From Candidatus Micrarchaeota archaeon (GTDB lineage: Archaea; Micrarchaeota; Micrarchaeia; Anstonellales; Bilamarchaeaceae): a DNA stretch of 64,000 bases. The notes under the pieces are model-generated. The model did not search any database and was not told the origin of the DNA. It saw nothing but the letters and a program-made list of their open reading frames with translations. This document shows positions 3,338 through 60,325 of the stretch, piece after piece. A program made the position numbers and the translations under genes. Position 1 is the stretch's first letter. Every line of letters begins with the position of its first letter. The stretch covers positions 128,047 to 192,046 of the forward strand of contig JBDRLQ010000003.1 of NCBI GenBank assembly GCA_043812915.1. Reading direction: 5' to 3'.

Positions 3338-3352
3338 AGGGTAACAACACAC

Positions 3353-3367
3353 AAAAAAATTAAATGG
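3353..3367. promoter_or_regulatory. Shared AT-rich TATA region (aaaaaaattaaatgg) between divergent genes
   Basis: ATG 3389 (+) and GTG 3337 (-) lie symmetrically about 27 nt either side of its centre. Confidence 0.4.
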
Positions 3368-3388
3368 TTTGGCATCCCTAATCCCATC

Positions 3389-3643
3389 ATGTTCGGCAGA
3401 CACAGCATCAGCCAATCCCCTGAAGCCAAGAAGAAGAGCCCCAGAGAGAGAAAGCGGGCCATGATAAAAGAATGCGAGAAGAAGTATGGGGTGAGCCTGA
3501 CAGAGGAGGAGCTTGACGGTCTGCTTGATGCGGCGCTTGGTAGTGGAGCGGTTTCCGGGGATACCAAGGGCAAGGTCAGGAAATGCCTGGTGGACAAGAT
3601 GAAGAAGGGAAAGGAATCAAAGATCCCGAAGAAAGGCAAATGA
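3389..3643 (+). CDS. Small basic hypothetical protein (84 aa)
   Basis: This is the downstream part of track ORF 3146..3643. ATG 3389 is about 27 nt from the TATA. Product: MFGRHSISQSPEAKKKSPRERKRAMIKECEKKYGVSLTEEELDGLLDAALG...KKGKESKIPKKGK. It lies immediately upstream of the DHH nuclease gene. An alternative start is ATG 3463. Confidence 0.3.
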   Translation: MFGRHSISQSPEAKKKSPRERKRAMIKECEKKYGVSLTEEELDGLLDAALGSGAVSGDTKGKVRKCLVDKMKKGKESKIPKKGK

Positions 3644-3655
3644 GGCATCATAAGA

Positions 3656-4957
3656 ATGTCTGAATTTCTTGAAAAGTGCGAAGAGGCCAGAAAGCTTGCT
3701 CTTTCTTTCAGCGAGCCGCTGATTGTGCACCATCACGACGCGGACGGCGTGAGCTCGGGGGCCATCGCGGTCGCGGCGCTGCGGGAGGCAGGTAGGAAGC
3801 CCAGGACCGAGTGCATAAAGAAGCTGGATGAGGCGTCCATTGAAAAGCTTGCGAATGAGAAGGAAATCATATTCACTGATCTGGGCGGGGGGAACCGGAG
3901 GGTTAATGAGCTCAATGACGTGCTCATCATAGACCACCACCAGACCGAAGGGATTGAAAAGCCGCAGATAAATCCCATGCTCTTCGGTATTGACGGGGGC
4001 GATGAGCTGAGCGCTTCTGGAACTGCTTACTGTGTTTTTCGAGTTCACGCTGACCTGGGAGTTGTCGGGGCGGTTGGCGATATGCAGTCTCCCCTGCGGG
4101 GCATGAACCGCTTTGTTATGGGTGAGGGGACCAAAAGCGGCGATGTGATGGTCGAGAACGACCTCCGTTTCTATGGAAGGTACTGCAGGCCGCTGGTACA
4201 GTTCCTCACTTATTCCGATGACCCCTACATACCGAATATCTCCTTTCGCGAGGACCGCGCCCTCTCGTTGCTATCAGAGCTCGGGATACCGCTGCTTGAG
4301 GGGGAAAGAAGGAGGGTGTATGCGGACCTTGATGAAGGTGAGAAGACAAAGCTAATCAGCGCGATAGCCAGAATCCTGATTAACACCAACCAGCTCAAAA
4401 AGACGAATGAGCTCCTTGGGGAGAGCTATGTTTTCCCCAAAAGGCCAAAGAACGAAACCTATGAGGCCAATGAGTTGAGCACCGTGCTAAATGCCTGCGG
4501 AAGGCACGGCCGCTCTGATGTCGGGCTGCGCATCTGCCTTGGGGATGAGGATGCGTATGCGGAGGGCAGGAAACTGCTGCAGCAGCACCGGAGGATGCTG
4601 AAGCAGGGGATTGAGTTCGCTTTGGGGAAGGTGCAGGATCTCGGCAGGTTCTATTTCCTTGATGGCAGGGGCGTGGTTGATGAAGGTATAATCGGAATCG
4701 TGTGCGGGATGGCACTCAGGCAGAGCTGGACAAAGCCAATCATCGGGATTTCGCTTGGGGAGAATGACACCATAAAGGCTTCTGGAAGGGCAGGGCGCGC
4801 TCTGGTGGAGGGAGGGCTCAACCTTGGGAAGCTGATGGGCGCTGCCGGAGCAGAAGCAGGAGGGATTGGCGGGGGGCACAGGATTGCCGCTGGAGCGTCC
4901 ATACCAAAAGGCTCCCTGAACAGTTTCCTAGTAGCCGTTGGAAAGTACTTCGGCTAA
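3656..4957 (+). CDS. DHH-family phosphoesterase, archaeal RecJ/Cdc45-like (GAN-type) nuclease
   Basis: 433 aa. DHH motifs are visible: HHHDADGVSSG near the N-terminus and LIIDHHQ. A C-terminal DHHA1-like GGGHRIAAGA is present. Size and layout match archaeal RecJ/GAN. Confidence 0.75.
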   Translation: MSEFLEKCEEARKLALSFSEPLIVHHHDADGVSSGAIAVAALREAGRKPRTECIKKLDEASIEKLANEKEIIFTDLGGGNRRVNELNDVLIIDHHQTEGIEKPQINPMLFGIDGGDELSASGTAYCVFRVHADLGVVGAVGDMQSPLRGMNRFVMGEGTKSGDVMVENDLRFYGRYCRPLVQFLTYSDDPYIPNISFREDRALSLLSELGIPLLEGERRRVYADLDEGEKTKLISAIARILINTNQLKKTNELLGESYVFPKRPKNETYEANELSTVLNACGRHGRSDVGLRICLGDEDAYAEGRKLLQQHRRMLKQGIEFALGKVQDLGRFYFLDGRGVVDEGIIGIVCGMALRQSWTKPIIGISLGENDTIKASGRAGRALVEGGLNLGKLMGAAGAEAGGIGGGHRIAAGASIPKGSLNSFLVAVGKYFG

Positions 4958-5028: not shown

Positions 5029-6399
5029 ATGGGAAGGCTCACAACTTTTTGCGTGTTGAGTGGACAAACTGGGAATGCCCAACGAACAAAGCCGGAGCCA
5101 GCGGATGCCCGGCCAAGGAAGCTTCCAGGAACCATGAACCTGGTGATACCCGCCTCTTATCTCCATTCTCTTGATCCTGAGCGGATAAGGAAGCTGCGGG
5201 AGTTCGTTCCATGGCAGTCGTACAGGAAGTGCAGCCGCGGCCTCTACCGCTATTGCAAGAGGGAGCGTGGAAGATGGCATCTTGCGCGAAGGGTAGTTGG
5301 CGGCATGAGGCACAATGCATATGACGAAGAGGGGAAAGCGACGCCTTTAGTGGACCCGCTCCGTCACCTGGCGCCAGGCCTGCCTGCGGGATTGCGCGGA
5401 ATCATTGGTGCTGCCCCTAATGGGAGCATCCTTGAAATGGAGCTGCTTCATGACTCATTCAATATACATATAATGACCCCTGCCCACTCCGCCTGTGAAC
5501 TTGGGCCCCTTTCTGTTTTCGTGCATGTTCCTGTTGCTATGGATGACGGGGTTCCGTTCCGCTTTTTGCATGAGGATTCTCCGCTCGCGGGGATGCAAGC
5601 GCATCCTGACATCGCGCTGACAACGCACGGGCTGGGGGCGGAAACGCGCCCGCATGATCTGGAAGCGCACATCGTTGTCCATGCCGGGCACCATGCACAT
5701 CACGGGCACCAGGAGCATGCCCGCGCTGGGGAGCCCGAGGCGTTTGGCGTATTCTTCCGCGCTTTCCTCAGAATCCCCGGCCTTGATCCGTATGCGGTGT
5801 GCACCGGCGGGCATTTCCATGCCCACCACGAGCACCATGGGCATCACCCAACAACTCATCACGGCCTTCACCATCCGCACCCCGGGCACTATCATTCCGT
5901 TCATGCACATGGGCATAACCAAGGCACTCATCACGCAGGGCACAATGCCTATCCAGAGCACCAAGAGCACCGCCAGCACTCCGGGCATCCACATGAGCAT
6001 CATCAGACCCACCACTCGTCAGGGCGCCCTGGGCCGGGACATCATTCGCGCCATGGGCACCATAATCACGGCGCTAACCGCCATGATGCTCATCACAGTG
6101 CCCATCATGCGGGCCACAACTTGCCAGGGCACCGCGAGCGCCCTACTCATCACGGGCAGGAGCGCTCCCGCCATGAGCACGGATGGAGCCTGAGATTCTT
6201 TGATGCGGTCTGGGGGAAGAAGGTGGGAATTGACCCCACGGCAATCGCGGAAGCCTCAGCTGCAAAGGCAGAGGCAGCCGCGGCCCATGAAGCGTCAAAG
6301 CCGCCGGAAGTCTCGAGATATCATGTGCTAGGAAGGCGGGAAAGAAGGTTTGTGAACCTGAAGGTGACCAGCGCCGCGGACGCGATGCCGCCGCAGTAG
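5029..6399 (+). CDS. Hypothetical extremely histidine-rich protein (putative metal-binding)
   Basis: This 456-aa ORF fills the entire gap between the DHH nuclease and RNase Z genes and has its own TATA. By my count residues ~209-385 contain about 55 His (HHAHHGHQEH, GHFHAHHEHHGHHPTTHHGLHHPHPGHYH, and similar). Two other frames are also open across the biased segment, so the frame assignment is not certain. Confidence 0.45.
   Translation: MGRLTTFCVLSGQTGNAQRTKPEPADARPRKLPGTMNLVIPASYLHSLDPERIRKLREFVPWQSYRKCSRGLYRYCKRERGRWHLARRVVGGMRHNAYDEEGKATPLVDPLRHLAPGLPAGLRGIIGAAPNGSILEMELLHDSFNIHIMTPAHSACELGPLSVFVHVPVAMDDGVPFRFLHEDSPLAGMQAHPDIALTTHGLGAETRPHDLEAHIVVHAGHHAHHGHQEHARAGEPEAFGVFFRAFLRIPGLDPYAVCTGGHFHAHHEHHGHHPTTHHGLHHPHPGHYHSVHAHGHNQGTHHAGHNAYPEHQEHRQHSGHPHEHHQTHHSSGRPGPGHHSRHGHHNHGANRHDAHHSAHHAGHNLPGHRERPTHHGQERSRHEHGWSLRFFDAVWGKKVGIDPTAIAEASAAKAEAAAAHEASKPPEVSRYHVLGRRERRFVNLKVTSAADAMPPQ
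5653..6183 (+). repeat. Low-complexity CAY/ATG-rich segment encoding the His-rich region
   Basis: The compositional bias keeps three frames open: +1 is His-rich, 5654..6193 (+) is Thr/Met/Ile-rich, and 5455..6015 (-) is Met/Val-rich. Confidence 0.6.
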
Positions 6400-7628: not shown

Positions 7629-10583
7629 ATGGAACTGAACCTAAAGAAGATGGGGGCAATTGTTGCGGGTGCAACAATTTTGGCCAGCTCAGTCGGTTTT
7701 GCCGGACTTATGTTTGGTGACACCACGCTGGTGGACGACAACGGAGCCCCGTTAGCAAAAGTCGTCCTGGGATCAAAGAGTGCAGCACCTGATGGTGTGG
7801 CAGCTGGTCTCATCGCGGGAAAGATGGTGAGTGAATCGTATGCAGTTGAAGAACTCACCGCACAGGTCGCCGGAACCGCAACTTGCGGTGAGGGCAGCGG
7901 TACCGGAACAGGCACCGGAACTTGTGACATAGCCGATGAGAAAGCTAAACTCCAGATTACAGTACCTGGAAGCGCCATGGAGGGAACTTACACGGTCAAC
8001 AACTTGATCGGTGACTACCTCAACAGGAGGCTCAAGGACAGGGAAGACAATGTCGCAGGAGACTCTGACTCTGACTACCCGATGGGTGGCTCTGACGTCT
8101 CAGAGAACGCGAACCCGTTCACTGACGGCACTGGACCTGGCGGATCAATCGGCCCGAGCGAAACCTTCCTCTACAGGATTGATGGTGGAATGTTCTCTCC
8201 GTTCCAGACGCAGAACCTCGTCGATGACGATGCTGCGAGGAACTACGTCGAAGAGCAGAACATGTGGCTTCAGGGAGACAGCCACTACGATGAATCCCCA
8301 GAGGAAATCGTCGGTGACCTGAGATTCTTGGCATACACGCTCAAGTTCTCTGGCTCAGGTGATGACTTTGGTATCCCGGTGTGTACGACCCCTGATGGAA
8401 CAGACTATGCAGACTGTCTGCTTGGTGCAACTCCGCAGTCCCACTATGAAACCGCAAGCCACAAGGTAAGAGTATACTTCCTTGGCGAGCAGTGGGTCAT
8501 CAGCGACATGAGTCCGCCTTTAACGGCACTCACGTCCGAGACCTCGCTTGTTGATGGTGGATGGGTTAAGCTGGCAAAGGAGTCCATTTCTGGTGTTATC
8601 AACCAGGGTGAGGCACTTCCGGTCGATGACCTGAAGTTCCAGCTGGACGACCTTGAGGCACACGGTGACACGACCGCAGCCATTATCTCTGTCCTTGACG
8701 CGAACGGCAACGTTCTGAAAAAGGACAAGGTTGGTGAGGGTGATACGAAGGAATTCGCAATCGAGGGAACAACTTACAGGTTCCACGTATACAAGGTTGC
8801 ACCTGGTTACACCTTCGGCGCGAAGTGGGCTGATGTAGCTATCTACTCCAAAGAGCTCAAGCTCGAGGATGGACAGCAGCTGGACCCGGACTACGACAAC
8901 AACGAGTACTATGAGGTAGCTCTTGGATGGAAGAACAAGGGCGCTCAGGCTGGTGTTGACGAGCAGCCGGACTTCCTGAGGACCGCGGTGGTCTTCACAG
9001 AAGACATCGGATCAATCTCAAGCGGTGGCGAGGAGCAGTTCGAGGTTGGTGACTACCTGCCTATCGTGCAGGACCCGGTCGCCTGGAGGCTTACCTACCA
9101 GGGCCTGGACATTACCAACAGCGAGAGGACTTACCTTAGGTATGACCTCGAAAGGACAACTGACAAGACCCTTACGGCGAGCCACGGTCCTGTGACCGAG
9201 ACCGCAACTGGGATACGTGTTCAGTGTGACATCACAGCACCCTACGTAGAGGTCAAGTCTGGTGGAACTGGAACTATCTTCGAGATGACCGGTTCAACTG
9301 GTGAAGGTGACCAGGACACAACCCTTGCAGCAACCAGGTTCTATGTAGCAACCAATGGTGCAACTTGTGAAAATGACACAAGCGTTGTGGGTGGTGGATT
9401 CCCGGCTGGATGTCCTCTTGGTGTATGCCCTGCAGGTACTATCTTCATGACTCTCTCCCCGTCGTCCAACGACTATGGGCTCGAGGGCTATGATGAGGTT
9501 GCCGACGGCGGCGCAGCTTGTCCGAACGTATTCCTCAGCCAGGTGGTTGATTACAGCACCATTGGAGATGGTGACACCGACTGGTTGACTGGTGGTATGC
9601 TGGAAGTTTCAAGCTACCTCAGTGCGTCTCCTGCAGCTCAAGGATTTGCAGCAACGGACAACGGATGCAGTTACATGGGAGGCCTCAGGGCAGAGAACAC
9701 AACGCCCTGTATGTCCGACGGTGGAACTGACCCGAGGTGTTTCGGTGACGCGAGGCTGGTTGATGCAGCTGCCAATACCGACTGGTACTTCGGTCTGTCA
9801 GAGAAGGCAGGTGTGGATTCGTCCAACGACTTTGCGGACTACCACCTTGTAGGTCTTGACCTTGATGGTGGGGACTCAACCTTCAACTTCGACAGCCAGA
9901 CTGCCGGTGGTGACTACATCACCAGGGAGGACTACGAACTGTACATGTTCGCAGGACCTGTCTCAAACAGGGGCAACATCCAGACCCAGGAGGAAGGATT
10001 CATCTCTGAAAGGGGCTCTGTCTTCGATGACATCTCTGATACCTCAGTGAGGTATTACATGGCCGACGACCTTGCGTACTCTCAGTGGTACCTTTCGAGC
10101 GTTGAGCAGTCCGAAGCCGAGGCTGGCTCTGTAGTCAGGACCCTTGGTGAGGGCGAGGAAACAACCGTTAACGGCGTTACCGTTAAGGTCCTCGAAATCA
10201 CCGAGACTGTGCTGCCTTGTTCCGTTGGAACTGCAGCAACACCTGCGTGCGGACCTGCCGACATGAGTGGCGTTTCCGCGGTCATCATGCCGCAGAACAC
10301 CGCGACCGTAACCGCCTCGATTCCGTATGCATACAGCAGCTACGGGAACCTGGTTGTCCTTGATAAGGACGCGGTTGGCGTTAACACGCTCGTGTCTGTT
10401 GGTGGTGACAAGGTCAACACTGTAACCAAAGAGCTTCTCTCTGGTTCCGCAGTTGACTGGACAACTACCAAGAAGGTTGTGCGCGAAGTCGTTCAGGGCT
10501 CCAAGATTGTCGTCGCCGGTGCAGAATCCGAGGACACACTCGCAGCAGCTCAGGACTTCGTTAACCAGCTGAGGAGGGTGTAA
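7629..10583 (+). CDS. S-layer protein (Methanococcus-type N- and C-terminal regions)
   Basis: 984 aa. It has an N-terminal signal (LKKMGAIVAGATILASSVGFAG) followed by VVLGSKSAAPDGVAAGLIAGKM. The C-terminus reads LVSVGGDKVNTVTKELL...KIVVAGAESEDTLAAAQDFVNQL, resembling conserved archaeal S-layer termini. There are many Cys pairs and N-x-S/T sequons, and a strong T-rich terminator downstream. Confidence 0.75.
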   Translation: MELNLKKMGAIVAGATILASSVGFAGLMFGDTTLVDDNGAPLAKVVLGSKSAAPDGVAAGLIAGKMVSESYAVEELTAQVAGTATCGEGSGTGTGTGTCDIADEKAKLQITVPGSAMEGTYTVNNLIGDYLNRRLKDREDNVAGDSDSDYPMGGSDVSENANPFTDGTGPGGSIGPSETFLYRIDGGMFSPFQTQNLVDDDAARNYVEEQNMWLQGDSHYDESPEEIVGDLRFLAYTLKFSGSGDDFGIPVCTTPDGTDYADCLLGATPQSHYETASHKVRVYFLGEQWVISDMSPPLTALTSETSLVDGGWVKLAKESISGVINQGEALPVDDLKFQLDDLEAHGDTTAAIISVLDANGNVLKKDKVGEGDTKEFAIEGTTYRFHVYKVAPGYTFGAKWADVAIYSKELKLEDGQQLDPDYDNNEYYEVALGWKNKGAQAGVDEQPDFLRTAVVFTEDIGSISSGGEEQFEVGDYLPIVQDPVAWRLTYQGLDITNSERTYLRYDLERTTDKTLTASHGPVTETATGIRVQCDITAPYVEVKSGGTGTIFEMTGSTGEGDQDTTLAATRFYVATNGATCENDTSVVGGGFPAGCPLGVCPAGTIFMTLSPSSNDYGLEGYDEVADGGAACPNVFLSQVVDYSTIGDGDTDWLTGGMLEVSSYLSASPAAQGFAATDNGCSYMGGLRAENTTPCMSDGGTDPRCFGDARLVDAAANTDWYFGLSEKAGVDSSNDFADYHLVGLDLDGGDSTFNFDSQTAGGDYITREDYELYMFAGPVSNRGNIQTQEEGFISERGSVFDDISDTSVRYYMADDLAYSQWYLSSVEQSEAEAGSVVRTLGEGEETTVNGVTVKVLEITETVLPCSVGTAATPACGPADMSGVSAVIMPQNTATVTASIPYAYSSYGNLVVLDKDAVGVNTLVSVGGDKVNTVTKELLSGSAVDWTTTKKVVREVVQGSKIVVAGAESEDTLAAAQDFVNQLRRV

Positions 10584-10700: not shown

Positions 10701-11570
10701 ATGGTCAATTCTACTACTGAATCAAAGAACGAATCAAGGAAGCCAATCCAGAGGAAGCTCCAGAATGGTGCAGTTGGCGAGAAGGAGGACTCCGAGAATG
10801 GGGATTCCAAGAGGAAAAGCATCCTCAAGGCGCTCCCGCTGGTCTCGGCTGTCGCTGCGGCGAGCCTTTCATGCCATCTTGATGTCCTTCCGGCAGACGC
10901 TGGCCACGACGCTGGGCAGGACTCGGACGCCCCTGCCGATGCGGACCATGCTGATGCGGATGAGATTGAGGCTGATGTGGAAGCCGATGGCGACCTTGAT
11001 GCTGACATTGACGCGGACCTGGATGTTGATGCGGAGTCTGACGGCGATGTTGAAACCGATGGCGATGCGGATGCAGATGCCGACATGGAGCTTGACGGGG
11101 ACGTTGAGGCTGAGGGCGATGCTGATGTGGATGCAGATGCCGACGCGGATGCAGAGCTCGATGGCGACCTTGACGGCGATGCTGAAACCGATGCAGAAGC
11201 AGAGCTCGACGGTGATGCCCTGACTGATGGCGATGTTGAGGCAGATTCTGAAGCTGACGAGGAAGTTGATGGCTGCCCGTTAATCACGAACGATTCTGAG
11301 CGGGTGACGCTAACTGCGCTGGGCAGTGTGGTTCCAGTCGGAGCCTCGAACGTATCAATAATCCATCAGGGCGAATCCGGCCACATTGTGACCGTGAGGC
11401 TGGTTCTGACGTCCGACCCCTCAGTATTTATCTCGGATGCGGTTCCCTTGGGGAGCGGCCCTGGCCCGGTTGAAATCCCGATGTACTGCGGGGCCACTGC
11501 CACGGCAACGAGCATGACCGTAATAGGTGATGACCTCACAGTAACGATGGCAATAACCGGTGCGGACTGA
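10701..11570 (+). CDS. Hypothetical lipobox-bearing poly-Asp (alternating D-X) protein, paralog A
   Basis: 289 aa. It has a charged N-terminus, then a hydrophobic segment ending in ASLSC, then about 130 aa of D-X alternation (DADADADMELDGDVEAEGDADVDADADADAELDGD), then a ~95-aa non-repetitive C-terminal domain shared with the next gene. The opposite-strand and +2 ORFs are shadows of the repeat. Confidence 0.6.
   Translation: MVNSTTESKNESRKPIQRKLQNGAVGEKEDSENGDSKRKSILKALPLVSAVAAASLSCHLDVLPADAGHDAGQDSDAPADADHADADEIEADVEADGDLDADIDADLDVDAESDGDVETDGDADADADMELDGDVEAEGDADVDADADADAELDGDLDGDAETDAEAELDGDALTDGDVEADSEADEEVDGCPLITNDSERVTLTALGSVVPVGASNVSIIHQGESGHIVTVRLVLTSDPSVFISDAVPLGSGPGPVEIPMYCGATATATSMTVIGDDLTVTMAITGAD
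10881..11270 (+). repeat. GAY-NNN periodic coding repeat (alternating Asp array) in paralog A
   Basis: Asp falls at nearly every second codon over about 130 codons. All three forward frames and the reverse strand stay open. Confidence 0.8.
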
Positions 11571-11600
11571 TTCTTTTTTCTCTTTTTATCTTCATTTTCC
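11571..11600 (+). terminator. T-rich terminator after paralog A
   Basis: ttcttttttctctttttatcttcatttt directly after the stop at 11570. Confidence 0.5.
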
Positions 11601-11635
11601 CATATAATTTGTTTATTTGTGGGGAGTTATGACCA

Positions 11636-11691
11636 ATATTTATAAATGTTGTTATACATTAAACATTCTGATTTAATTTCAAAAAGGAGGG
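11636..11691 (+). promoter_or_regulatory. TATA-like box (atatttataaatg) plus Shine-Dalgarno-like GGAGGG upstream of paralog B
   Basis: TATA at 11636-11648. GGAGGG at 11686-11691 lies 7 nt before ATG 11699. Confidence 0.45.
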
Positions 11692-11698
11692 ATATTGG

Positions 11699-13531
11699 AT
11701 GAGTGGAAATGAAGTGATGAGGCAAGAGAGGACGCTACGGAATGGACAGATTGAGGGCCCAGCAAGAAATCCTGGCAGGTTTGAGAAAGCCGCGAAGAAA
11801 GTCGCGCCGTTTTTTGTCGGCACCACGCTTTTGGCCGGGGCGCTCAGGTGTAGCAGCAGCGGGGAAACCGGGCAGCCGGATGCAGGAACAACTGTTGAGC
11901 TTTGCTCGCAGGAGCCTGGCACATCGTGCAGCGCGCAGACATTCAATACTTTCCTTAACCAGGTAGCGGCCACTTTCAACCACGGCAACGGGCCAGTGGC
12001 ATTCGCCGTCTCACCTTCACTCAATGTGGAGACTCTTGATGTGATTGACCCCGAATCCGGAGTAATCAGCACCAAGAGAATCGTTTCAGCAAGGATTGCG
12101 ACCTTTGTGAGGGTCGATGTCCCAGAAGAGCGCGATGCCGGCGCTGATGCCGGCGACCTTATCTGCGGTGGCAGATGGGAAGTCGTGGAGCAGGCGAACG
12201 TTTATTCAGAAGAGGACGCAAGGGAGATGCGCGCACAGGGATTCGACGCTGTCGGAACCAGGCGCTACAACGCCCTTGGGACCGGGTATGATGTTACCCT
12301 CCTGAACCTTGATGAGGCAGTCCTCACTGATGAAGATGGCAATCCGATTCCTGATGCGGAGGGCAATATGCAGAGGACCTACGCGGTGGGCTTGAGGATT
12401 GACCCGATTTGCGATGGCGAGACCGTCGGCCCGACTGATGGCGATGCGGACGCAGACCTAGACGGAGATGTTGAGGCAGGCGGAGATGTCGACGCAGATG
12501 CGGACATGCATGATGCCGATGTCCTGCCCGATGGCGATATCGTAACTGATGGCGATGCGGATTTGGATGCCGACACGGACAGCGTGGTGGACGCTGACGG
12601 CGATGGCGGTGTCGTCTGCGAGACGAGGGATCACACATGCAACACCGAAAGGCTTGCTGAAGGATGGCTCTCTGCCGGAGAATATTTCATAATGGGAACC
12701 CGCAGGTTCCAGCTTGTCGAGCTTGAGACTGTCGGCGCATATGTGGAGGCAACCTACCGGGTCACCGACAACTGCGCAACCCCGATTCCGGGGCTTGGAG
12801 GGAGCGCCCACATAGGCGAGGAAACGGTACTTGAGAGCGCAGGTGAGGAATCATCCTACACAGTCAGGATAACTGATGTCGTAGGCGGCTCTGTCAGGTT
12901 CGAGGTTGATGAGAACTGCCCGGGAGATGTCACTGATGGCGATGCTGATGTTGACGCTGACGCGGATGCCGACATGGGCCTTGACGGGGACGTTGAGGCT
13001 GACGGCGATGCTGATGTGGATGCGGATGCAGACGCTGATTCGGAACTGGATGCGGATTCCAGCCTTGACAGTGATGTTGAGGCTGACAGCGATGCAGACG
13101 CTGACGCGGATTCAGGATTTGACGCCGATGCCGAAACCGATGTGGATGGGGGTTCGGATGCCGATGCAATAATCCCTGATGCCGATACGGACTTCGATGC
13201 GCCTCTAGGGGCATGCGACGGACTGACAAACGGGGAAGAGAGAATCCGTGTGTTTGCCGAAGTTCCGCGCCACGCACCAGTATCTCCTGATCAGGTTGAA
13301 GACAGTCATATCTCAGTCTATCCGGTCTCAACTGACGACCGGAGCGCCGTTCTAAGGATGGTCCGGACTGATGACCTGTCTGTTGCGGTCTCCGGAGACT
13401 TCGAAGTGTGGGTGGCAACCCCCATAAGGGTGGGGGTTTGCGGCGGAGACGCAACCTTCACAGCAACCACTGTCCTGGGCCGTCAGGTTGAGAGCACTGT
13501 CTCGATTACCGGACTTCCGCCAAGGCCATAG
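11699..13531 (+). CDS. Hypothetical lipobox-bearing poly-Asp (alternating D-X) protein, paralog B
   Basis: 610 aa. It has an N-terminal hydrophobic segment ending in AGALRC, two globular Cys-containing domains, two D-X arrays, and a C-terminal domain alignable to that of paralog A (C..LTN..ER...CG..AT.T..TV.G....ITG). Confidence 0.6.
   Translation: MSGNEVMRQERTLRNGQIEGPARNPGRFEKAAKKVAPFFVGTTLLAGALRCSSSGETGQPDAGTTVELCSQEPGTSCSAQTFNTFLNQVAATFNHGNGPVAFAVSPSLNVETLDVIDPESGVISTKRIVSARIATFVRVDVPEERDAGADAGDLICGGRWEVVEQANVYSEEDAREMRAQGFDAVGTRRYNALGTGYDVTLLNLDEAVLTDEDGNPIPDAEGNMQRTYAVGLRIDPICDGETVGPTDGDADADLDGDVEAGGDVDADADMHDADVLPDGDIVTDGDADLDADTDSVVDADGDGGVVCETRDHTCNTERLAEGWLSAGEYFIMGTRRFQLVELETVGAYVEATYRVTDNCATPIPGLGGSAHIGEETVLESAGEESSYTVRITDVVGGSVRFEVDENCPGDVTDGDADVDADADADMGLDGDVEADGDADVDADADADSELDADSSLDSDVEADSDADADADSGFDADAETDVDGGSDADAIIPDADTDFDAPLGACDGLTNGEERIRVFAEVPRHAPVSPDQVEDSHISVYPVSTDDRSAVLRMVRTDDLSVAVSGDFEVWVATPIRVGVCGGDATFTATTVLGRQVESTVSITGLPPRP
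12437..12610 (+). repeat. Alternating Asp array 1 of paralog B
   Basis: DGDADADLDGDVEAGGDVDADADMHDADVLPDGDIVTDGDADLDADTDSVVDADGDGG. Confidence 0.8.
12926..13198 (+). repeat. Alternating Asp array 2 of paralog B
   Basis: DGDADVDADADADMGLDGDVEADGDADVDADADADSELDADSSLDSDVEADSDADADADSGFDADAETDVDGGSDADAIIPDADTDFD. Nucleotides 12962-13023 are about 90 percent identical to 11073-11134. Confidence 0.8.
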
Positions 13532-13585: not shown

Positions 13586-15070
13586 ATGAGCTCAAAACTA
13601 CAAAAAAGCCGGAATCTGTCTACAGAAATCAGGAACCCGAATCGCAAGTTCGGGACACGCACAACCCTAAAGGAGTCCATTCTTCTTTCTGCCGCTTCAA
13701 TTGCGGCGACAGTTATATTCACGCTCAGCCCTGCATACGCGCAGAGCGCCAAATGCAGCGCGCGCGTCGTTCCTGGGGAAATTGGAGAGCGCTTCTCGCT
13801 AAAGACAAGCGGAACGAAAGTTGAAGGGCTGACACTGAGGTTTTCCATCCCTGTCAAAGGCTCGCACGGGGAGCTGGCAATCAGCGGGCCCTTCGCGGAC
13901 AGCCTTGTCACAATGCCTGAAGATGTAAGATTCACCGTCCTGAGCAGCAACCTCACAAAGGGCAGGACCCTTCTTTCCTCATCGCGCAGGGCGACATTCG
14001 GATGCATTAGCGGGGATTCAGAAGCCCCGAGCCCTGTTCCAATAGAATCAATCCAGAAGCTTGTTCGTGAAGCTGGGAGCAGGATGAAGCAGCTTGATGC
14101 AACGAGGAAACTAACAGGGGTAAGCTCAAAGACCAAGGGCGATGTTTCAACATTCATATCAAAGCGCGGGCCCCTGATGTCCGCAATCAAGGGCCGTGAT
14201 ATCCCTGGTTTGCAGAGGGCAATCGAGCAGGCAGATTCGCACCTTCTGACCATGAGGTCTGAAGTGGATGCATCGGCCCAGGCGATAAAATCAGAGGCGC
14301 TTGATTTGTCCAGGCAGCTCCGCGAAGCTGCCTCAGAGCTTCCGGAAGGGAGGCAGAAAAGGGCTGCAATCCAATTGGCAGACTCTGTTGAGGCGGAGGC
14401 GGGCCGGGACCAGGTTCGCGTAAGCGCGCTTACAAAGGGCATGGCGAGCATTGGGCGCGCGATTCCGCAGGCCCGGGATGCGGCCGACGCTGCGCGGGAG
14501 AGGCAGGCGACCGCAGACGCAGCTGAAAAGGCACAGGCGGATGCCGCTGAAAAAGTTCGTGTTGAAGCAAGGACGGAAGCTGCAAAAGTGCATGGAATGG
14601 ACAGATGCACGGGGGATTTCCCAGTAAGCATAATCACAGGAAAGGGCGCGGTGGAGAGATATAAGCTCGCTGTTCCGCTTAAGCTTGTCGTGGAGTCCGG
14701 AGGCACTGCGACAAAGGATGGCACGGACCACCCGATAAGGGCCGTCCTGGAGGTTAGCGCCAAATCCATCCTTCCTCAGCATGTCAAAGGCACAATCGAA
14801 TCTGCCACAAAGACAATCAGAAGGAGCCTTGATACAAGATGCCCGGCTGGAAATCCGGCTTCAATCGAAGTAATCGAAACGAATCTGGGAGTTGCCATCA
14901 TGGGACTCCGAAACAAGATGATTAGCAAAATCGATGGCATTACGGCTGATGAGGATGGCAATCCGGAGCGCCCTCTGCTCCTGAAAGTGAGGGGGCTTCT
15001 TGCCGGCAGGTCGAAGGCCGAGGAAGATGCCGCAATATCTGCCGCCAAGCAGAAAGCAGGTGTCCGGTAA
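13586..15070 (+). CDS. Hypothetical secreted protein with a central Ala/Glu/Arg/Lys coiled coil
   Basis: The track ORF starts at GTG 13574. ATG 13586 fits the TATA spacing. The signal-like segment is ESILLSAASIAATVIFTLSPAYAQS. Beta-rich flanks surround a central helical region (ATADAAEKAQADAAEKVRVEARTEAAKV). The 428-aa minus ORF 13483..14769 is a Ser/Ala-rich shadow. Confidence 0.5.
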   Translation: MSSKLQKSRNLSTEIRNPNRKFGTRTTLKESILLSAASIAATVIFTLSPAYAQSAKCSARVVPGEIGERFSLKTSGTKVEGLTLRFSIPVKGSHGELAISGPFADSLVTMPEDVRFTVLSSNLTKGRTLLSSSRRATFGCISGDSEAPSPVPIESIQKLVREAGSRMKQLDATRKLTGVSSKTKGDVSTFISKRGPLMSAIKGRDIPGLQRAIEQADSHLLTMRSEVDASAQAIKSEALDLSRQLREAASELPEGRQKRAAIQLADSVEAEAGRDQVRVSALTKGMASIGRAIPQARDAADAARERQATADAAEKAQADAAEKVRVEARTEAAKVHGMDRCTGDFPVSIITGKGAVERYKLAVPLKLVVESGGTATKDGTDHPIRAVLEVSAKSILPQHVKGTIESATKTIRRSLDTRCPAGNPASIEVIETNLGVAIMGLRNKMISKIDGITADEDGNPERPLLLKVRGLLAGRSKAEEDAAISAAKQKAGVR

Positions 15071-15115
15071 GCCCTTTTTTCTTTGATAATGCCTTTCAGG
15101 CCTTGGCGCAAGGCC
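15071..15115 (+). terminator. T-tract followed by a perfect 7-bp hairpin (ggccttg-gcg-caaggcc)
   Basis: gcccttttttctttg at 15071-15085. The inverted repeat at 15099-15115 lies directly before the next TATA. Confidence 0.4.
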
Positions 15116-15116
15116 G

Positions 15117-15127
15117 CTTTTAAATAT
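15117..15127 (+). promoter_or_regulatory. TATA-box-like element (cttttaaatat) upstream of the lysine-free ORF
   Basis: Its centre is about 26 nt upstream of ATG 15148, so the mRNA is predicted to be leaderless. Confidence 0.5.
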
Positions 15128-15147
15128 CTTTGTTCCTTATCTTTTTC

Positions 15148-17238
15148 ATGGCAGCGCCACCACAACCTCGCGGAATACAGTGCACTGTTGCTATCCAGGA
15201 AATGAATGCCCAGGAGGCCTCCAGGGCAATGGCGAACCCGTTGCAGCGCGAGGGGGAGCGGATTTCAGTCCGTCTGGTTGTCCCGGCAAGGACCGGCTAT
15301 CTTTCCGCCGAGATCCCGGCACAGGCGGTGAATGAGGTGCTTGATTGGGCCTCACATATCCAGAGCCCGCAGGATAGGCGGGATTTTATCAGCCAGTGGC
15401 TCAGCGACAATATCGCGCGCATCAGGCGTGCCCATGACGGCGCCGCCAGGGATGCAACTGCCTTCGATTTCAGCGTTGTTCCTGTCCGGGAAGTGCGCAT
15501 TGTGCGCAGTATCGAGGATATAGTCCCAAGTCTGACTTTCGATCCCACCGCCATTGCCGCGCTCGTTGCCCGGGATGGCCAGGTGGCGGTAGCGAGCCGG
15601 GACACGCGCATATTCTCCGAGAGACGGCAGGCGCTTACTACTTTGGGCAGGGGAATCGGCCGCCTGCTCAGGCTCCACCAAAGAACCAGCGGAGGGCTCA
15701 ACCAGGATCAGATCAGGCTTCTTATCGGCCAGGTCCCTGTCGATCAGATAGAAACACTCCTCCGGCCGCTCGGCCTTGAGCGCAGGGACAGTGCAGCACT
15801 GCAGGAACTGCTTGCAGGTGGCCAGAGGACAACCGCCGGCGATGTCGTGATGGTGCCCGGAATCATCGTGAGAATAAACCAGCTGATGATGGACGAGCCT
15901 GAAAGGGACAGGATTTCCCCGGTCACCCTTGACCGGCGCGCCGCTGATGAGGCAAGGGAGCGCATGACTGAACTCCGGCGCATCGGAAGCGCTGAGGGGA
16001 GAGCGCTTGCCACCAGCATCGAGCGGGCCATCGGAACAGTCCGGAGGCCGCAGCTGCTTTCACTTATAGAGGATGCCGACAGGCTAATCAGCGCCGCTGG
16101 GAGCAGGGACGAAGCTGCTGAAGTCGCTGCAGTGAGGCAGGCAAGCGAGCCTGCACGGACTGCCGCCTCCCGCCTCAGGGAACTTGCCAGGGATACGAGG
16201 GTCGGAAATCTCATGGCATCTGCAACCGTCGCTGCCCTCTCAATCCAGCAGGAACTCGGGCGCGAGGCTCCAAGGTCATCCAGGCTAAGGCAGCTCACAA
16301 CAGAAGCACAGTTACTAATCACGCGCATGGAAGCTGCCATAGCATCGGCCGAAGAGGCTGCTGGAAGGCAGGCTTTGCTTACAGAAAGGCGGGGAATCGC
16401 GCAGGCCAGGATAGCAACCATAGACGGGCTGCAGTCCCAGGATGGGGTTACTCCGGCGCACAGGAGGTCTGCAGCAGCCCTGCTAAGCCAGCTCCGCGCC
16501 GCAAGGGAAGGAACGGATGCCGCACTCCTGCAAAGGAGAGTTGCCGAGGCGGACACCCTGATTGCGCTTTTGCGCGCTGACATTGACAGGCATGCTGCCC
16601 GGGCCCCGCCCGCAGCGCCAACCGGCACCCTGAGGCAGCCCACTGCCGTTGCGGCAGAGCACAGCCAGCTCCTGCAGGAATTCGCCAGGCTCCTCCATCG
16701 GCGCACTGACTTCTACTCCCGCCGCCGGGAAAATCCGATAGTGCTTCACCTTGCGAACCTGTCAGAAACCTACCGGGTTGATGCTGGCGATGTCCTCTAT
16801 GACGGCGGAGTGAGGGAAGCATCCCTCGATTATGAGGGACAGACATTCAGGTATCTTACATTCATTACCGCGGCCGATGTCAGGCAGGTCTATCGTGGCC
16901 TTCCTGAGAGATACAGGACAGCTGCACGGGATGCCCGATTCCGTCCTGCCGGTGCTTCTGCCCTCAGCATGCTAGCGCTTCCTTCGGCCCGTCAGGGCGC
17001 TTCTCCTACTGTGGACGGAGAATTGCTCGAGCAGATACGCACCAGGCTCACAACGCAGTATCTTGCCCAGGCCCGCCGCGCTCTTGAGGCGGCAGGGCTC
17101 AATATGGGTACAAGGATTCAGCTGGAAGGCGGTGCGGAAAGGACCATCGGCCAGATTGTCCAGGACCAGGTTACCGAGGCGGTCCGCGGCGTGCTCCAGG
17201 ATATCACCACAGTTACTACAATAAGGATGGAGCCGTGA
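15148..17238 (+). CDS. Hypothetical large Ala/Arg/Leu/Glu-rich helical protein with no lysine
   Basis: The track ORF begins at TTG 15130. ATG 15148 fits the TATA. I find no K anywhere in the 697-aa product and see no signal peptide. The region is GC-rich and carries a 320-aa shadow ORF on the minus strand. I recognise no family. Confidence 0.55.
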   Translation: MAAPPQPRGIQCTVAIQEMNAQEASRAMANPLQREGERISVRLVVPARTGYLSAEIPAQAVNEVLDWASHIQSPQDRRDFISQWLSDNIARIRRAHDGAARDATAFDFSVVPVREVRIVRSIEDIVPSLTFDPTAIAALVARDGQVAVASRDTRIFSERRQALTTLGRGIGRLLRLHQRTSGGLNQDQIRLLIGQVPVDQIETLLRPLGLERRDSAALQELLAGGQRTTAGDVVMVPGIIVRINQLMMDEPERDRISPVTLDRRAADEARERMTELRRIGSAEGRALATSIERAIGTVRRPQLLSLIEDADRLISAAGSRDEAAEVAAVRQASEPARTAASRLRELARDTRVGNLMASATVAALSIQQELGREAPRSSRLRQLTTEAQLLITRMEAAIASAEEAAGRQALLTERRGIAQARIATIDGLQSQDGVTPAHRRSAAALLSQLRAAREGTDAALLQRRVAEADTLIALLRADIDRHAARAPPAAPTGTLRQPTAVAAEHSQLLQEFARLLHRRTDFYSRRRENPIVLHLANLSETYRVDAGDVLYDGGVREASLDYEGQTFRYLTFITAADVRQVYRGLPERYRTAARDARFRPAGASALSMLALPSARQGASPTVDGELLEQIRTRLTTQYLAQARRALEAAGLNMGTRIQLEGGAERTIGQIVQDQVTEAVRGVLQDITTVTTIRMEP

Positions 17239-17280
17239 TTTTCCGGCATCTCTTTATTCTTTTTATCCCTAATCATCAGC

Positions 17281-17847
17281 ATGGCAAACAGGGCTACTAT
17301 CCAGGAAGAGGTTGTTCGGACTGATTTGGATTTTGTTCCGGTTGATACCAGTTCGACGCAGGAGCAGCGCAGGGAAACCGCGCTGACGCTTGTTGATGAA
17401 CTGCAGGGAAGGCTCCATTCAGCCAGGAATCTGACGAATGCGGACCGGCTCAGGATATTCGATTCCTTATCGGGTCTTGAGGGCGCTGTAGCAGCGGATG
17501 ACAAGGATGGGATGATGGAAGAAATGGCAACTGCGCGGGCCCTTCTGCGCAGGCTTCCGCTGCCACATCCAGGCGGGTACCCTCCCAATGTGGAAACAGG
17601 CACCTTTGAAGAGCAGGATTTCAGGGACACGGCCCAGATGTATGAAGTTAACCTGAGCGGGCAGATTGATGAACTGCGCCAGAGCGGACTTCGGCTCGTT
17701 GTAATGAATTACGCAGAGGAGATTATCAGGCGGCTCCACAACGAGTCCGGGCGCCAGCCGCTGAACAGAACCGCGATAAACGAGCTCATCCAGGAGGCTG
17801 AAGGCATCTCCAGGCAGATTGAGGAAATCATCACTGCAAATCGCTAG
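17281..17847 (+). CDS. Hypothetical 188-aa helical protein with a single lysine
   Basis: Preceded by a T-rich/TATA-like tctttattctttttatccc at 17250-17268. Its composition resembles the upstream lysine-free protein. I recognise no family. Confidence 0.45.
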   Translation: MANRATIQEEVVRTDLDFVPVDTSSTQEQRRETALTLVDELQGRLHSARNLTNADRLRIFDSLSGLEGAVAADDKDGMMEEMATARALLRRLPLPHPGGYPPNVETGTFEEQDFRDTAQMYEVNLSGQIDELRQSGLRLVVMNYAEEIIRRLHNESGRQPLNRTAINELIQEAEGISRQIEEIITANR

Positions 17848-17893
17848 AGGGTTTTTGGCGGACAATCGTTTGCGGCGCTCGTGGCAACCTTAT

Positions 17894-17903
17894 CATTTAT
17901 AAT
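17894..17903 (+). promoter_or_regulatory. TATA-box-like element (catttataat) upstream of the Zn-ribbon gene
   Basis: Its centre is about 27 nt upstream of ATG 17926, so the mRNA is predicted to be leaderless. Confidence 0.45.
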
Positions 17904-17925
17904 CCATCGACTCCCTTATCTGGTG

Positions 17926-18657
17926 ATGGGCAGGTGCATCCGCTGCGGCAGGGAAGGCCATATGGAATACGGCAGTGATGGCCAGGCCTACTGTGGTTCC
18001 TGCGTGTTCTATGGGATGAACAAACCATGCTGGAGGTGTGGGATGTATGTTCCTGCATCAGAGCTCCAGCAGTACAAGGGGCAGTGGATGTGCCCGATAT
18101 GCATAGGGGATGCCAGGGCGGCGGACGCGCGCGTGAGCTACAAAGAGCCGACATACAAGAAAAATGATTATCCTATGCAGGTGCATTCCTACGAGGAGAC
18201 TTGCGAGAAGTGCGGAAGAACTCTTGTCACGGTGTACATCCTCAACGGGAAGAAGCTCTGCTGGACATGCCTGCATGAGGAGCAGGACAAGTGGACAATC
18301 GTTGGTGGGGAGAAGCCGCCGACCGTGCCTATGAAGATGACTGTCGAGGCGCAGAGGAAATCCGCGCTCAGGAAATTCTTCGAGCACGTATTCTCCGAAT
18401 TCCTCGCATTGTTCGGGGTGAGGTGGAAGCCCCGGGAACCAGTCTCGCAGGTTGTCGCGCTCAAGGCAACGCAGTCAAAGAGGCCCAGGCGCTCCTTCGG
18501 CAGGCCGATGGTGTCTGGGATGAGGAAGGAGCGCGAGGATGCGGTTCCAAGCACAGAGGGGATAATCAAGGGGAAGCCGAAAACGCCCCGCAAGAAATCC
18601 TCCGACGTAACCTTCCCGGAATACCAGAAAAAGGACAAAAAGAAGGATAAAAAATGA
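17926..18657 (+). CDS. Hypothetical multi-zinc-ribbon protein with a Lys-rich tail
   Basis: The track ORF starts at GTG 17881. ATG 17926 (MGRCIRCG) fits the TATA. CxxC pairs are CIRCG..CGSC, CWRCG..CPIC and CEKCG..CWTC. The C-terminus reads KGKPKTPRKKSS..KKDKKKDKK. Confidence 0.55.
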   Translation: MGRCIRCGREGHMEYGSDGQAYCGSCVFYGMNKPCWRCGMYVPASELQQYKGQWMCPICIGDARAADARVSYKEPTYKKNDYPMQVHSYEETCEKCGRTLVTVYILNGKKLCWTCLHEEQDKWTIVGGEKPPTVPMKMTVEAQRKSALRKFFEHVFSEFLALFGVRWKPREPVSQVVALKATQSKRPRRSFGRPMVSGMRKEREDAVPSTEGIIKGKPKTPRKKSSDVTFPEYQKKDKKKDKK

Positions 18658-18740: not shown

Positions 18741-19244
18741 ATGCTTACATACGCTGTTCTTCGCGATATTCAGAAACGTGAGATGGAATCATCTGCAATC
18801 GTTCAGTTGCAGGATGGCTTCTACACGCAAGTCGCGGAGTTCCTCTCCAGCAAGAAGGACGAGGCCGCCGGTGGGGACATGCTCTCTCTTCGGGAGTATG
18901 AGAACATCAAGAAGATTGTCCGCGATGTCCAGACAAAAAGGGAGGAGAAAATCGTCCTCATGGCAATTCGTGGGAATATTGCGGGCGCGGGGCTCACCTC
19001 CGAGGAGCAGGATATGCTCAGGGAGCTGATATCCACAATCGATAAGGTCCGCGGGAAGCTGGTCGGAATCTGGGGCACCGAGAGAAAGGCCAACCGGAAG
19101 AAGGTCAAGCTCCTTCAGGATGTTGAACAGTATAAAGGTCTTGATAATAAGGTATATGGCCCCTTTAAGCAGGGGGAAGAACAGACGCTGCCAGGCGGTG
19201 AGGCCGAATGGCTTGCCAGATCAGGCATGGCCGAGCTGGCTTAG
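18741..19244 (+). CDS. GINS complex subunit (Gins51/Gins15-type)
   Basis: 167 aa. The N-terminal helical A-domain pattern is LRDIQKRE...LQDGFYTQVAEFL...EYENIKKIVRDVQTKREEKIVLMAI. The C-terminal B-domain is VKLLQDVEQYKGLDNKVYGPFKQGEEQTLPGGEAEWLARSGMAE. This resembles archaeal Gins51. Confidence 0.6.
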   Translation: MLTYAVLRDIQKREMESSAIVQLQDGFYTQVAEFLSSKKDEAAGGDMLSLREYENIKKIVRDVQTKREEKIVLMAIRGNIAGAGLTSEEQDMLRELISTIDKVRGKLVGIWGTERKANRKKVKLLQDVEQYKGLDNKVYGPFKQGEEQTLPGGEAEWLARSGMAELA

Positions 19245-24182: not shown

Positions 24183-24303
24183 AGCCTCAGGGGGTATTCG
24201 AAACCCCGACCTCCCGCTTTCCTTGGAGGAGGGCAGTGAACGCAGTTCACAAAAACCTCCCGCTTACAAGGCGGGCGCTCTGACCAGGCTGAGCTACTGA
24301 GGC
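24183..24303 (-). tRNA. tRNA-Thr (anticodon UGU) with a 46-nt intron
   Basis: Manual fold of the minus strand: acceptor GCCTCAG/CTGAGGC, D arm GCTC-AGCCTGGTCA-GAGC, anticodon arm CCCGC-CTTGTAA-GCGGG, variable AGGTC, T arm GGGGT-TTCGAAT-ACCCC, discriminator T. The mature length is 75 nt and no CCA is encoded. With a canonical 37/38 splice the intron is 24219..24264. It contains a 6-bp hairpin, GTGAAC-TGC-GTTCAC. Confidence 0.8.
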
Positions 24304-53125: not shown

Positions 53126-53136
53126 AGCATTTCACC

Positions 53137-55071: not shown

Positions 55072-55072
55072 T

Positions 55073-56713: not shown

Positions 56714-56729
56714 GCTCGCGCACCCTCAA

Positions 56730-58376: not shown

Positions 58377-58464
58377 TTCAATCACCACGAGGAACCTCTT
58401 TCATAAGGCGGTTCCTACGGTTTCTCCACCTTGGGTGGATGCTCATCATGAATTGGTTCGTGAA

Positions 58465-58473
58465 GTTTATAAG
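58465..58473 (-). promoter_or_regulatory. TATA-box-like element (cttataaac on the minus strand) upstream of the ATPase gene
   Basis: Lies 9-17 nt after the stop of the upstream coiled-coil gene and predicts a roughly 60-70 nt leader containing two hairpins. Confidence 0.4.
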
Positions 58474-58481
58474 AGCTCCAG

Positions 58482-60203: not shown

Positions 60204-60224
60204 GAGCTAGATATCATTCAGCAC

Positions 60225-60325
60225 ATTAATAAAGATTATGACGGTCTCCGGGAAGTTATGGCGCCGTTGATGCTGTTTTTTTCATGATATGTGTGAGGGA
60301 ACTGAGACAAGTTAATAAACATTTT
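60225..60325. promoter_or_regulatory. Divergent promoter region with two TATA-like boxes
   Basis: attaataaag (60225-60234) serves the minus-strand gene at 60203. gttaataaacatttt (60311-60325) serves the plus-strand gene at 60351/60360. Confidence 0.4.

Follow-up and report, generated by a model that had tools for sequence, protein, structure and literature searches.

A largely lysine-free protein family of Micrarchaeota encoded beside an S-layer gene

Introduction

The locus described here raises the question of why a protein of nearly 700 residues should contain no lysine (Lys) at all. The gene, 15148..17238 on the + strand, lies in a 64,000-nucleotide stretch from a Candidatus Micrarchaeota archaeon (assembly GCA_043812915.1, contig JBDRLQ010000003.1, positions 128,047 to 192,046), referred to below as the window, and its product (P0001) belongs to a protein family in which Lys is rare or absent in most members. 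By analogy, the finding may be regarded as an archaeal lysine desert of an extreme kind, seen in a protein family that is new and has a conserved S-layer-linked context. The evidence that Lys is selected against is presented first, followed by the gene cassette in which the family is encoded and by the explanations that can be offered.

The lysine-free protein and its reading frame

The gene, the parts of its product and the gene that follows it are:

15148..17238, + strand, Lys-free long-form family member P0001, 696 aa, with 0 Lys, 94 Arg and 1 Cys
15148..15492, + strand, family-defining N-terminal alpha/beta domain (N-domain), aa 1-115, beta-alpha-beta-beta-beta-alpha-alpha-beta
15535..16602, + strand, helical region rich in Ala, Arg, Glu, Gln and Leu, aa 130-485, from AlphaFold2 secondary structure
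16375-16584, + strand, helical module common to P0001 and the exported paralogue, aa 410-479 (hhalign of A8 against A9, E 2.3e-5)
17281..17847, + strand, small helical Lys-poor protein W_188, 188 aa, one Lys (AAG 17503-17505, in DDKDG)

An earlier note, made from the letters of this DNA alone, had described a 697-aa protein without Lys, a following 188-aa product with a single Lys in DDKDG and an upstream gene (13586..15070) with about 35 Lys. Residue counts agree, with 696 aa as the length of the first, one Lys in the second and 35 Lys in the 494 aa of the third. P0001 comprises 94 Arg (13.5%), 106 Ala, 8 His, 39 Asp and 47 Glu; no AAA or AAG codon was identified in frame, and the other two frames hold 18 and 20. 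Mean Lys content of the remaining open reading frames (ORFs) of the window is 7.3% (17,553 residues), none of which presents a Lys-free run near 700 residues, and the binomial probability of finding no Lys in 696 residues is ~1e-23, as expected from the note's statement that chance was unlikely. The sum of Lys and Arg is 13.5% in P0001 vs 12.9% in the background. The main Arg codon is AGG (44%), with AGA at 6%, a host-like usage, so that half of the Arg codons are one transition away from a Lys codon. In P0001 and in P0007, the 979-residue member of the family, Gln is raised 2.1-2.6-fold and Cys, Met, Trp, Tyr and His are likewise depleted.

The frame is correct because a full-length homologue exists (P0002 of locus L001, 661 aa, 46-49% identical over the whole length), because AlphaFold2 models the product with confidence and because a TATA box stands at a conserved distance from the ATG. 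In the model of P0001 the N-domain has a predicted local distance difference test score (pLDDT) of ~90 and the helical region one of 80-97; the N-domain modelled by itself reached pLDDT 83 and a predicted template modelling score (pTM) of 0.72. A frame error, which the note had named as a way for its claim to fail, is thereby ruled out by homologues and model. The two genes 15148..17238 and 17281..17847 are genuine and form part of a cassette restricted to Micrarchaeota. No signal peptide and no transmembrane segment were identified in P0001.

Base composition and origin of the gene

The gene has a GC content of 0.61 vs a window mean of ~0.53, with 0.68 vs 0.56 in the background at codon position 1 and 0.52 vs 0.39 at position 2. 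At position 3 (GC3) it is 0.64 vs 0.66. The extra GC therefore sits in the first two codon positions, and the raised GC follows from the amino-acid composition. An explanation without any selection on Lys would invoke mutational bias, recent transfer from a high-GC donor or a wrong frame, and the GC of the gene as well as an Ala/Arg-rich composition like that of high-GC proteomes speak for it. It is nevertheless contradicted by the GC3 that is not raised, by host-like Arg codons, by Lys-free orthologues at GC3 0.31-0.41 and by a conserved syntenic position among core genes, and the wrong frame by the homologues and AlphaFold2. This explanation deserves practically no credence, and bias, horizontal gene transfer or artefact as the cause is refuted.

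The composition is not that of a high-GC artefact (GARP-rich, FYMINK-poor) given the GC3 of 0.64 vs 0.66, nor that of an acidic, Lys-poor halophile-type protein, since 94 Arg and 8 His stand vs 39 Asp and 47 Glu. The halophile type was rejected on this charge and on Lys-rich neighbours: genes next to the Lys-free family members carry 7-20% Lys. A mobile or viral origin was also rejected: no PHROG match, no relatives on IMG/VR viral contigs (two viral-contig scans), no BFVD fold match and a fixed synteny. The claim that the depletion is protein-specific, selected and not driven by GC thus stands, with Lys-free orthologues at 45-63% GC and with the exchange counts given below.

Selection against lysine

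Pairwise alignments of Lys-free members were inspected for columns in which Arg is replaced. The same loci provided the control, namely orthologues of GINS, eIF2alpha, PAC2, the Zn-ribbon protein and the exported paralogue. Lys is the partner in 1 of the 588 replaced-Arg columns of the family vs 162 of 333 in the control. In the opposite direction, 25% of the Lys columns of Lys-rich orthologues are aligned to Arg in the Lys-free ones vs a baseline of 8.8%, the Arg-for-Lys substitution that the note had proposed to look for. As judged from these alignments, strong purifying selection specific for this residue has purged the mature proteins of Lys, which is substituted mainly by Arg in the family and simply lost in the Asp-rich neighbours described below. 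One of the latter (W_610) lost Lys without gaining Arg, which argues for avoidance of Lys and not for preference of Arg. Lys is kept exactly in N-terminal signal or anchor regions, which indicates that selection acts on the chemical properties of the protein once mature or exposed, and not on codons or mutation.

The family and its lysine distribution

The family was collected by exhaustive HMMER search of 1.84 billion representative proteins with a P0001/P0002 profile. This search matched 19 proteins, all with the N-domain, and further searches added members to a total of ~23. A word-index protein search with profile A3, the alignment of the 19 N-domains, retrieved three proteins only, and a metagenome scan with short forms one new locus. 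All named members belong to Micrarchaeota or Micrarchaeia. On this sampling, the family of ~23 members appears as Micrarchaeota-specific and previously undescribed. Invariant residues in A3 are P57, V61, R77, W84 and F106. Short forms (~260-390 aa) are formed by the N-domain, a Pro-rich linker and a C-domain starting GGxGTxxxPY; long forms (661-1,055 aa) contain a long helical insertion after the N-domain. The Lys contents are:

Long forms and one fragment: 0/696, 1/661, 0/826, 0/1055, 1/979 and 0/156
Six short members (one partial sequence among them): 0
Six other short members or fragments: 1-3
Four short members: 4.6%, 8.3%, 10.6% and 10.9%

The distribution is all-or-none, either 0-1.4% or 4.6-10.9% Lys, and 19 of the ~23 members have at most 1.4%. 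A lysine desert has been defined as a Lys-free stretch of >=150 aa or >=50% of the sequence (PMC10665810); the corresponding runs are 696 of 696 aa in P0001 and, in the Asp-rich neighbours, 484 aa in W_610 and 246 aa in W_289. Conservation of the desert in orthologues was found for 19 of the ~23 members, exceptions being the four short ones. P0007 is encoded on a contig of 45% GC where most other genes have 9-19% Lys; with 1 Lys in 979 residues its Lys is 0.01x background, Asn being 1.10x and Ile 0.94x, and AGR, which a single transition turns into a Lys codon, makes up 80 of its 120 Arg codons. P0005 (0/826) has a GC3 of 0.31 and neighbours with 9-20% Lys, P0006 (0/1,055) has 63% GC, and the Lys-rich P0017 (8.3%) comes from a genome of 53% GC.

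The earlier note had suggested that orthologues be checked and that a normal Lys content in them would count against it. Most are Lys-free, as it had supposed; the four short members with 4.6-10.9% Lys go partly the other way. Since these four have normal Lys, the constraint is lineage-dependent and not universal. In a neighbour-joining distance tree without support values, in which Lys was recoded as Arg, Lys-rich short forms fall among Lys-free ones and the long forms make up an all-Lys-free clade, which suggests at least two independent relaxations or acquisitions of Lys.

The cassette and its neighbours

Further features of the locus, apart from the two genes above, are:

7629..10583, + strand, S-layer protein gene and upstream anchor of the cassette, PF05124 S_layer_C (E 9e-12), 33 Lys (3.4%)
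10701..11570, + strand, W_289, Asp-rich protein predicted as exported or anchored, 7 Lys, all in residues 9-43
11699..13531, + strand, W_610, Asp-rich protein predicted as exported, Lys at 30, 33 and 34 (signal n-region) and 126
13586..15070, + strand, W_494, exported paralogue with predicted signal peptide, 494 aa, two conserved Cys, 35 Lys (7.0%)
17881..18657, + strand, multi-CxxC Zn-ribbon protein with a Lys-rich tail (11% Lys), downstream boundary of the cassette
18741..19244, + strand, GINS gene (Pfam match and synteny), start of the conserved housekeeping block

The gene order is fixed: a tRNase-Z-like metallo-beta-lactamase, the S-layer protein (PF05124), the cassette, the multi-CxxC Zn-ribbon protein, GINS, L44e, S27e, eIF2alpha, Nop10 and PAC2. 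In the long-form lineage the order of the cassette is the Asp-rich exported protein, the exported Lys-normal paralogue, the signal-less Lys-free paralogue and sometimes a small Lys-poor protein, followed by the Zn-ribbon protein and GINS. L004, L006, L008 and the P0021 contig likewise have the S-layer gene upstream of their family member. The S-layer protein contains 3.4-5.9% Lys. When P0001, W_188 and W_494 were compared with PF05124 no match was obtained, 7629..10583 being the only one. In L006 an IS605 OrfB / Cas12f-like TnpB (3271-4404, - strand) lies between GINS and L44e and breaks the housekeeping block.

W_289 and W_610 are paralogous (phmmer E 2e-27). The Lys of W_289 precede a hydrophobic segment and the other 246 aa contain none; W_610 contains the 484-aa Lys-free run with ~30 Arg, its exported part has 1 Lys in ~560 aa, and its Arg content is 5.4% vs 5.6% in the background. 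Homologues of W_610 at the same position are found in L012 (2 Lys in 429) and L009 (0 in 165, cut). Both Asp-rich proteins (10701-13531, + strand) carry long Asp-dipeptide repeats, with 14-18% Asp; their matches, to the SD repeats of staphylococcal Sdr/Clf adhesin models and to a phage baseplate PHROG, come from low complexity only. Against known families W_289 gave only low-complexity, sub-threshold matches to bactofilin and SD-repeat models.

A paralogue bearing a signal peptide is always encoded directly upstream of the family gene, and two Cys are conserved in these exported proteins. Orthologues of W_494 are L011_13 (E 1e-92, 9.4% Lys), L009_623 (E 1e-35, 6.5% Lys) and L005_424 (E 1e-30, 8.7% Lys), so named after their loci, and Lys is normal in all four long-form genomes. 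The kinship with the family was seen only from profile to profile: the W_494 sequence by itself was negative against the N-domain profile, and a profile of all four exported proteins matched it (hhalign E 8.6e-6). The helical module shared by the long exported proteins and the long forms is 70 aa in length (hhalign E 2.3e-5), and the short exported proteins of L004 and L006 match the N-domain of the family (E 1e-10). The exported paralogue of L004 (L004_205) has Lys only at 13, 18 and 21; both paralogues are Lys-free in L004 and both are Lys-rich in L006.

W_188 has a homologue at the same position in L009 (5504-6082), of 192 aa with 3 Lys (phmmer E 2e-15; BLASTP 31% identity, E 1e-14). The earlier note had proposed that a unique Lys might be reserved; the only Lys of W_188 (K75) is aligned to K73 of this homologue, and conservation of this Lys is suggested weakly by a comparison of two sequences. 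A word-index search with W_188 retrieved only W_188 itself. The possibility that the family C-domain ('GGxGTxxxPY') recurs as W_188 or at the C-terminus of P0001 was discarded as unsupported (hhalign E 0.38 and 0.27). The gene 3' of P0002 in L001 (2187-2648, + strand) also encodes a Lys-poor product (3 Lys and 23 Arg in 154 aa), which has no detectable similarity to W_188.

The Zn-ribbon protein has six CxxC pairs, is conserved in Micrarchaeota and stands between cassette and GINS at every locus. Its orthologues are directly downstream of the family member in L004, L005, L006, L008, L009 and L011 (phmmer E 1e-56 to 1e-94). Only weak DZR matches were obtained, without family assignment. The listed GTG start of 17881..18657 is probably wrong, the true start being ATG 17926, and the N-terminus was truncated by gene callers in L005 and L011.

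Promoter of the family genes

The promoter of the target gene is:

15118..15147, + strand, promoter with TATA box TTTTAAATAT at 15118-15127, starting 30 nt before the ATG

A separate TATA box (TTTAAATA) precedes every family gene, beginning 30 nt 5' of the ATG, a distance which implies that the predicted mRNAs are leaderless. The 34 nt 5' of the ATG are identical at 33 positions between the window and L001, the encoded proteins being 46-49% identical. The core cTTTTAAATATyTTTGyT was identified at a fixed distance in the window (15115-15147), L001 (41-73), L011, L009, L005 and L004, that is, in all long-form loci and one short-form locus. The 24-nt core at 15118-15141 occurs once in the window, and a search of genome contigs with this 24-mer gave only chance Weissella matches.

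Known families and folds

Nothing significant was obtained from Pfam, PHROGs, NCBIfam and PADLOC with the target, its neighbours and six relatives, or from the PDB in sequence-profile searches with N-domain, long-form and C-domain profiles, so that the note's reading of P0001 as a protein without signal peptide or known family holds. Its proposal to place the protein by structure prediction and Foldseek did not succeed: the full model was compared with PDB, and the N-domain with both PDB and BFVD, and no match was better than E 0.06. No catalytic toxin domain was identified (Pfam, NCBIfam, PADLOC, PHROG and PDB), the invariant residues being P, V, R, W and F only. These conserved residues do not look catalytic and the family is probably non-enzymatic, with putative roles as scaffold, adaptor or structural proteins tied to the cell envelope or the host interface. 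Among the window ORFs scanned there was no ubiquitin-like modifier, E1-like, JAMM or proteasome-targeting gene, and no transglutaminase- or sortase-like gene.

Other observations in the window

A tRNA at 24183-24303 (- strand; Rfam, 121 nt, 55.8 bits) was not reported by ARAGORN and probably contains an intron. The ORF at 5029-6399 (+ strand; 456 aa, no family match) has an extremely His-rich core with HHxHHGH-type runs and a 293-aa Lys-free stretch (aa 104-396). It may encode a protein that binds metal, or else be a non-coding artefact of GC-rich sequence. At 52562-61886 three very Glu/Lys-rich ORFs (Glu 16-17%, Lys 9-13%) stand beside a pilin-like ORF whose signal peptide is of class III (MFDKKKKGQAAMEYLMTYGWAILVI), and the group may be a cluster related to a type IV pilus or archaellum.

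Discussion

The most likely cause of the purge, put forward tentatively, is evasion of a Lys-directed covalent process, for example isopeptide tagging. The purge is absolute, it affects unrelated proteins of one cassette, N-terminal Lys are tolerated and relaxation is all-or-none, a combination which suggests that one single Lys would suffice to do harm. The all-or-none pattern across unrelated proteins points to covalent tagging, cross-linking or site-specific cleavage, for which the epsilon-amino group would be the handle. The best candidate would be attachment of a ubiquitin-like modifier by an isopeptide bond, with subsequent removal by the proteasome, a fate which non-enzymatic scaffold or surface-interface proteins would have to escape, either in the symbiont itself or in the host cell, to which Micrarchaeota are reported to be joined by cytoplasmic bridges. 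The proteins would then be archaeal 'lysine deserts' at their extreme. The earlier note had likewise put forward, as hypotheses, evasion of SAMP-type tagging or of Lys-specific proteolysis, perhaps in a protein delivered to another cell. Components of the ubiquitin-proteasome system are protected by lysine deserts, which are also enriched in Actinobacteria capable of pupylation and in phages of these bacteria (PMC10665810, PMC10169902). Several results favour evasion: the effect is specific for Lys and not compositional (P0007, P0005 and host-like codon usage in the window); the replaced-Arg counts and the Lys-to-Arg columns show selection; W_289, W_610 and L004_205 retain Lys mainly in the N-terminal signal or anchor region; the adjacent exported paralogue, with 6.5-9.4% Lys in four long-form genomes, is a paired natural control; and Lys is distributed all-or-none in a family of non-enzymatic appearance.

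Other results weigh against evasion of tagging, starting with the scanned window ORFs and their lack of tagging genes. Two of the Lys-free proteins are exported, a misfit with tagging in the cytoplasm of the symbiont, where other proteins of the same cells are Lys-rich; if the N-terminal segments were uncleaved anchors, Lys would be kept exactly on the cytoplasmic side. The contrast between secreted and cytoplasmic paralogues is not universal, as the exported paralogue is Lys-free in L004 and both are Lys-rich in L006. Tagging in the host would require delivery into the host cell, which we can only infer. In cryo-electron tomography of a cultivated Micrarchaeon, host nanotubes were suggested to bridge both cytoplasms and to be wide enough for unfolded protein (PMC11329633). 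A bolder proposal, rather improbable at present, is that the cassette is the first recognisable DPANN protein set working inside a host archaeon or at the interface with it, where the absence of Lys would evade a ubiquitin-like/proteasome system of the host or shared cytoplasm, or another Lys-directed defence.

Directed cross-linking ranks next after tagging evasion, and is judged unlikely. The Lys-free, Gln-enriched proteins would be acyl donors only, or inert partners, in an S-layer-associated structure where designated amines form isopeptide bonds; the exported paralogue with its Lys and W_188 with its single, apparently conserved Lys would supply these amines, and the purge of all other Lys would stop self- and mis-cross-linking. 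Gln is indeed enriched 2.1-2.6-fold in P0001 and P0007, a Lys-normal paralogue always adjoins in the long-form cassette, the only Lys of W_188 is aligned with a Lys in its homologue and the cassette adjoins the S-layer gene. However, the scanned window ORFs include no transglutaminase- or sortase-like gene, the partners are predicted on opposite sides of the membrane since the family lacks a signal peptide, L004 has no Lys in either paralogue and L006 is Lys-rich in both, and the conserved Lys is a matter of two sequences. An Arg-only design, improbable and placed behind cross-linking, supposes that guanidinium groups are needed, for instance because they form bidentate salt bridges with the poly-Asp neighbours or with acidic glycans, lipids or nucleic acid, or because of helix or condensate properties, and that Lys was out-competed. 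The positive charge of P0001 is maintained near background and carried wholly by Arg, and the genes for Arg-rich and for Asp-rich Lys-free proteins adjoin; such a preference, though, predicts low and not zero Lys over 700-1,055 residues, should not bar the exchange of Arg and Lys at every variable surface site (1/588), and fits neither the loss of Lys without gain of Arg in the Asp-rich proteins (5.4% vs 5.6% in W_610) nor the four orthologues with 5-11% Lys.

Protection at the cell surface or host interface, either from a Lys-specific protease or from amine-reactive chemistry such as aldehydes, glycation or chloramines, comes last of these four and is quite unlikely. It would suit the Lys-free exported parts of W_289, W_610 and L004_205, whose N-terminal segments (cytoplasmic or cleaved) keep Lys, the depletion of Cys, Met, Trp, Tyr and His in P0001 and P0007 and the adjoining S-layer gene, but the family and W_188 have no signal peptide, the exposed S-layer protein (3.4-5.9% Lys) and the exported paralogue (6.5-9.4%) are rich in Lys, and Arg is kept, so that cleavage by trypsin-like enzymes would not be prevented. 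For amino acids, DPANN archaea rely on their hosts. This dependence and the lack of any in-frame Lys codon in 15148..17238 are compatible with an explanation at the codon level, where AAA and AAG would be avoided for translation when Lys or charged tRNA-Lys is scarce (for example in an auxotrophic symbiont detached from its host, or with cleaved tRNA-Lys). It is very improbable, given 7 and 3 Lys codons in the signal or anchor regions of W_289 and W_610 and 35 in W_494, so that the cassette cannot be made without tRNA-Lys; the position-specific tolerance also indicates the mature protein and not the mRNA.

Evasion of tagging, the preferred reading, invites comparison with known systems. Like the published lysine deserts (PMC10169902, PMC10665810), the family has long conserved Lys-free stretches in which Arg is retained, a feature read there as protection from tagging. 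In contrast, the desert here spans 100% of proteins of 300-1,055 aa, in DPANN archaea of mid or low GC, and the proteins are, as modelled, largely well folded and not disordered; their link to tagging is a candidate one. The surveys of lysine deserts in these two studies did not cover archaea.

The second comparison is with Lys-poor A chains of AB toxins translocated from the endoplasmic reticulum, such as ricin A, cholera toxin A1 and pertussis S1. These share with the family a strong paucity of Lys and a normal Arg content, and must survive in the cytosol of another cell. Unlike the family, which presents neither a catalytic signature nor toxin homology, they are enzymes with a known delivery. 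Archaeal S-layers of two components, one of them a stalk or anchor partner (SlaA/SlaB type), have been discussed for Micrarchaeota as an open question (10.1101/2021.04.28.441871). The cassette is similar to them in its lineage-specific genes immediately 3' of an S-layer gene, including an exported or anchored helical protein, and differs in having no sequence or structural similarity and a Lys-free member without signal peptide or transmembrane segment. The Asp-dipeptide low-complexity repeats of W_289 and W_610, and of these two only, recall the Ser-Asp repeat stalks of staphylococcal Sdr/Clf adhesins; with scores of ~50 bits vs cut-offs of 999-2,500 this is a compositional analogy and not homology.

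Avoidance of Lys is known from components of the eukaryotic ubiquitin system, AB toxins and pupylating Actinobacteria, and in the literature searched none has been described for archaea. The present case is a clean one, with proteins of up to 1,055 residues without Lys in mid- or low-GC genomes, adjoined by Lys-normal paralogues, and with relaxed lineages as a natural comparison. The new Micrarchaeota-specific family has no detectable relatives and is a candidate part of the DPANN cell envelope or host interface. If the proposal of a protein set acting in or on the host were true, 'lysine-free' would be a sequence signature for finding inter-archaeal effectors, and the return of Lys in a lineage would point to a new host or to loss of the Lys-directed system. 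The pattern implies that a Lys-directed process (tagging, cross-linking or cleavage) acts on S-layer-linked proteins of an obligate symbiont.

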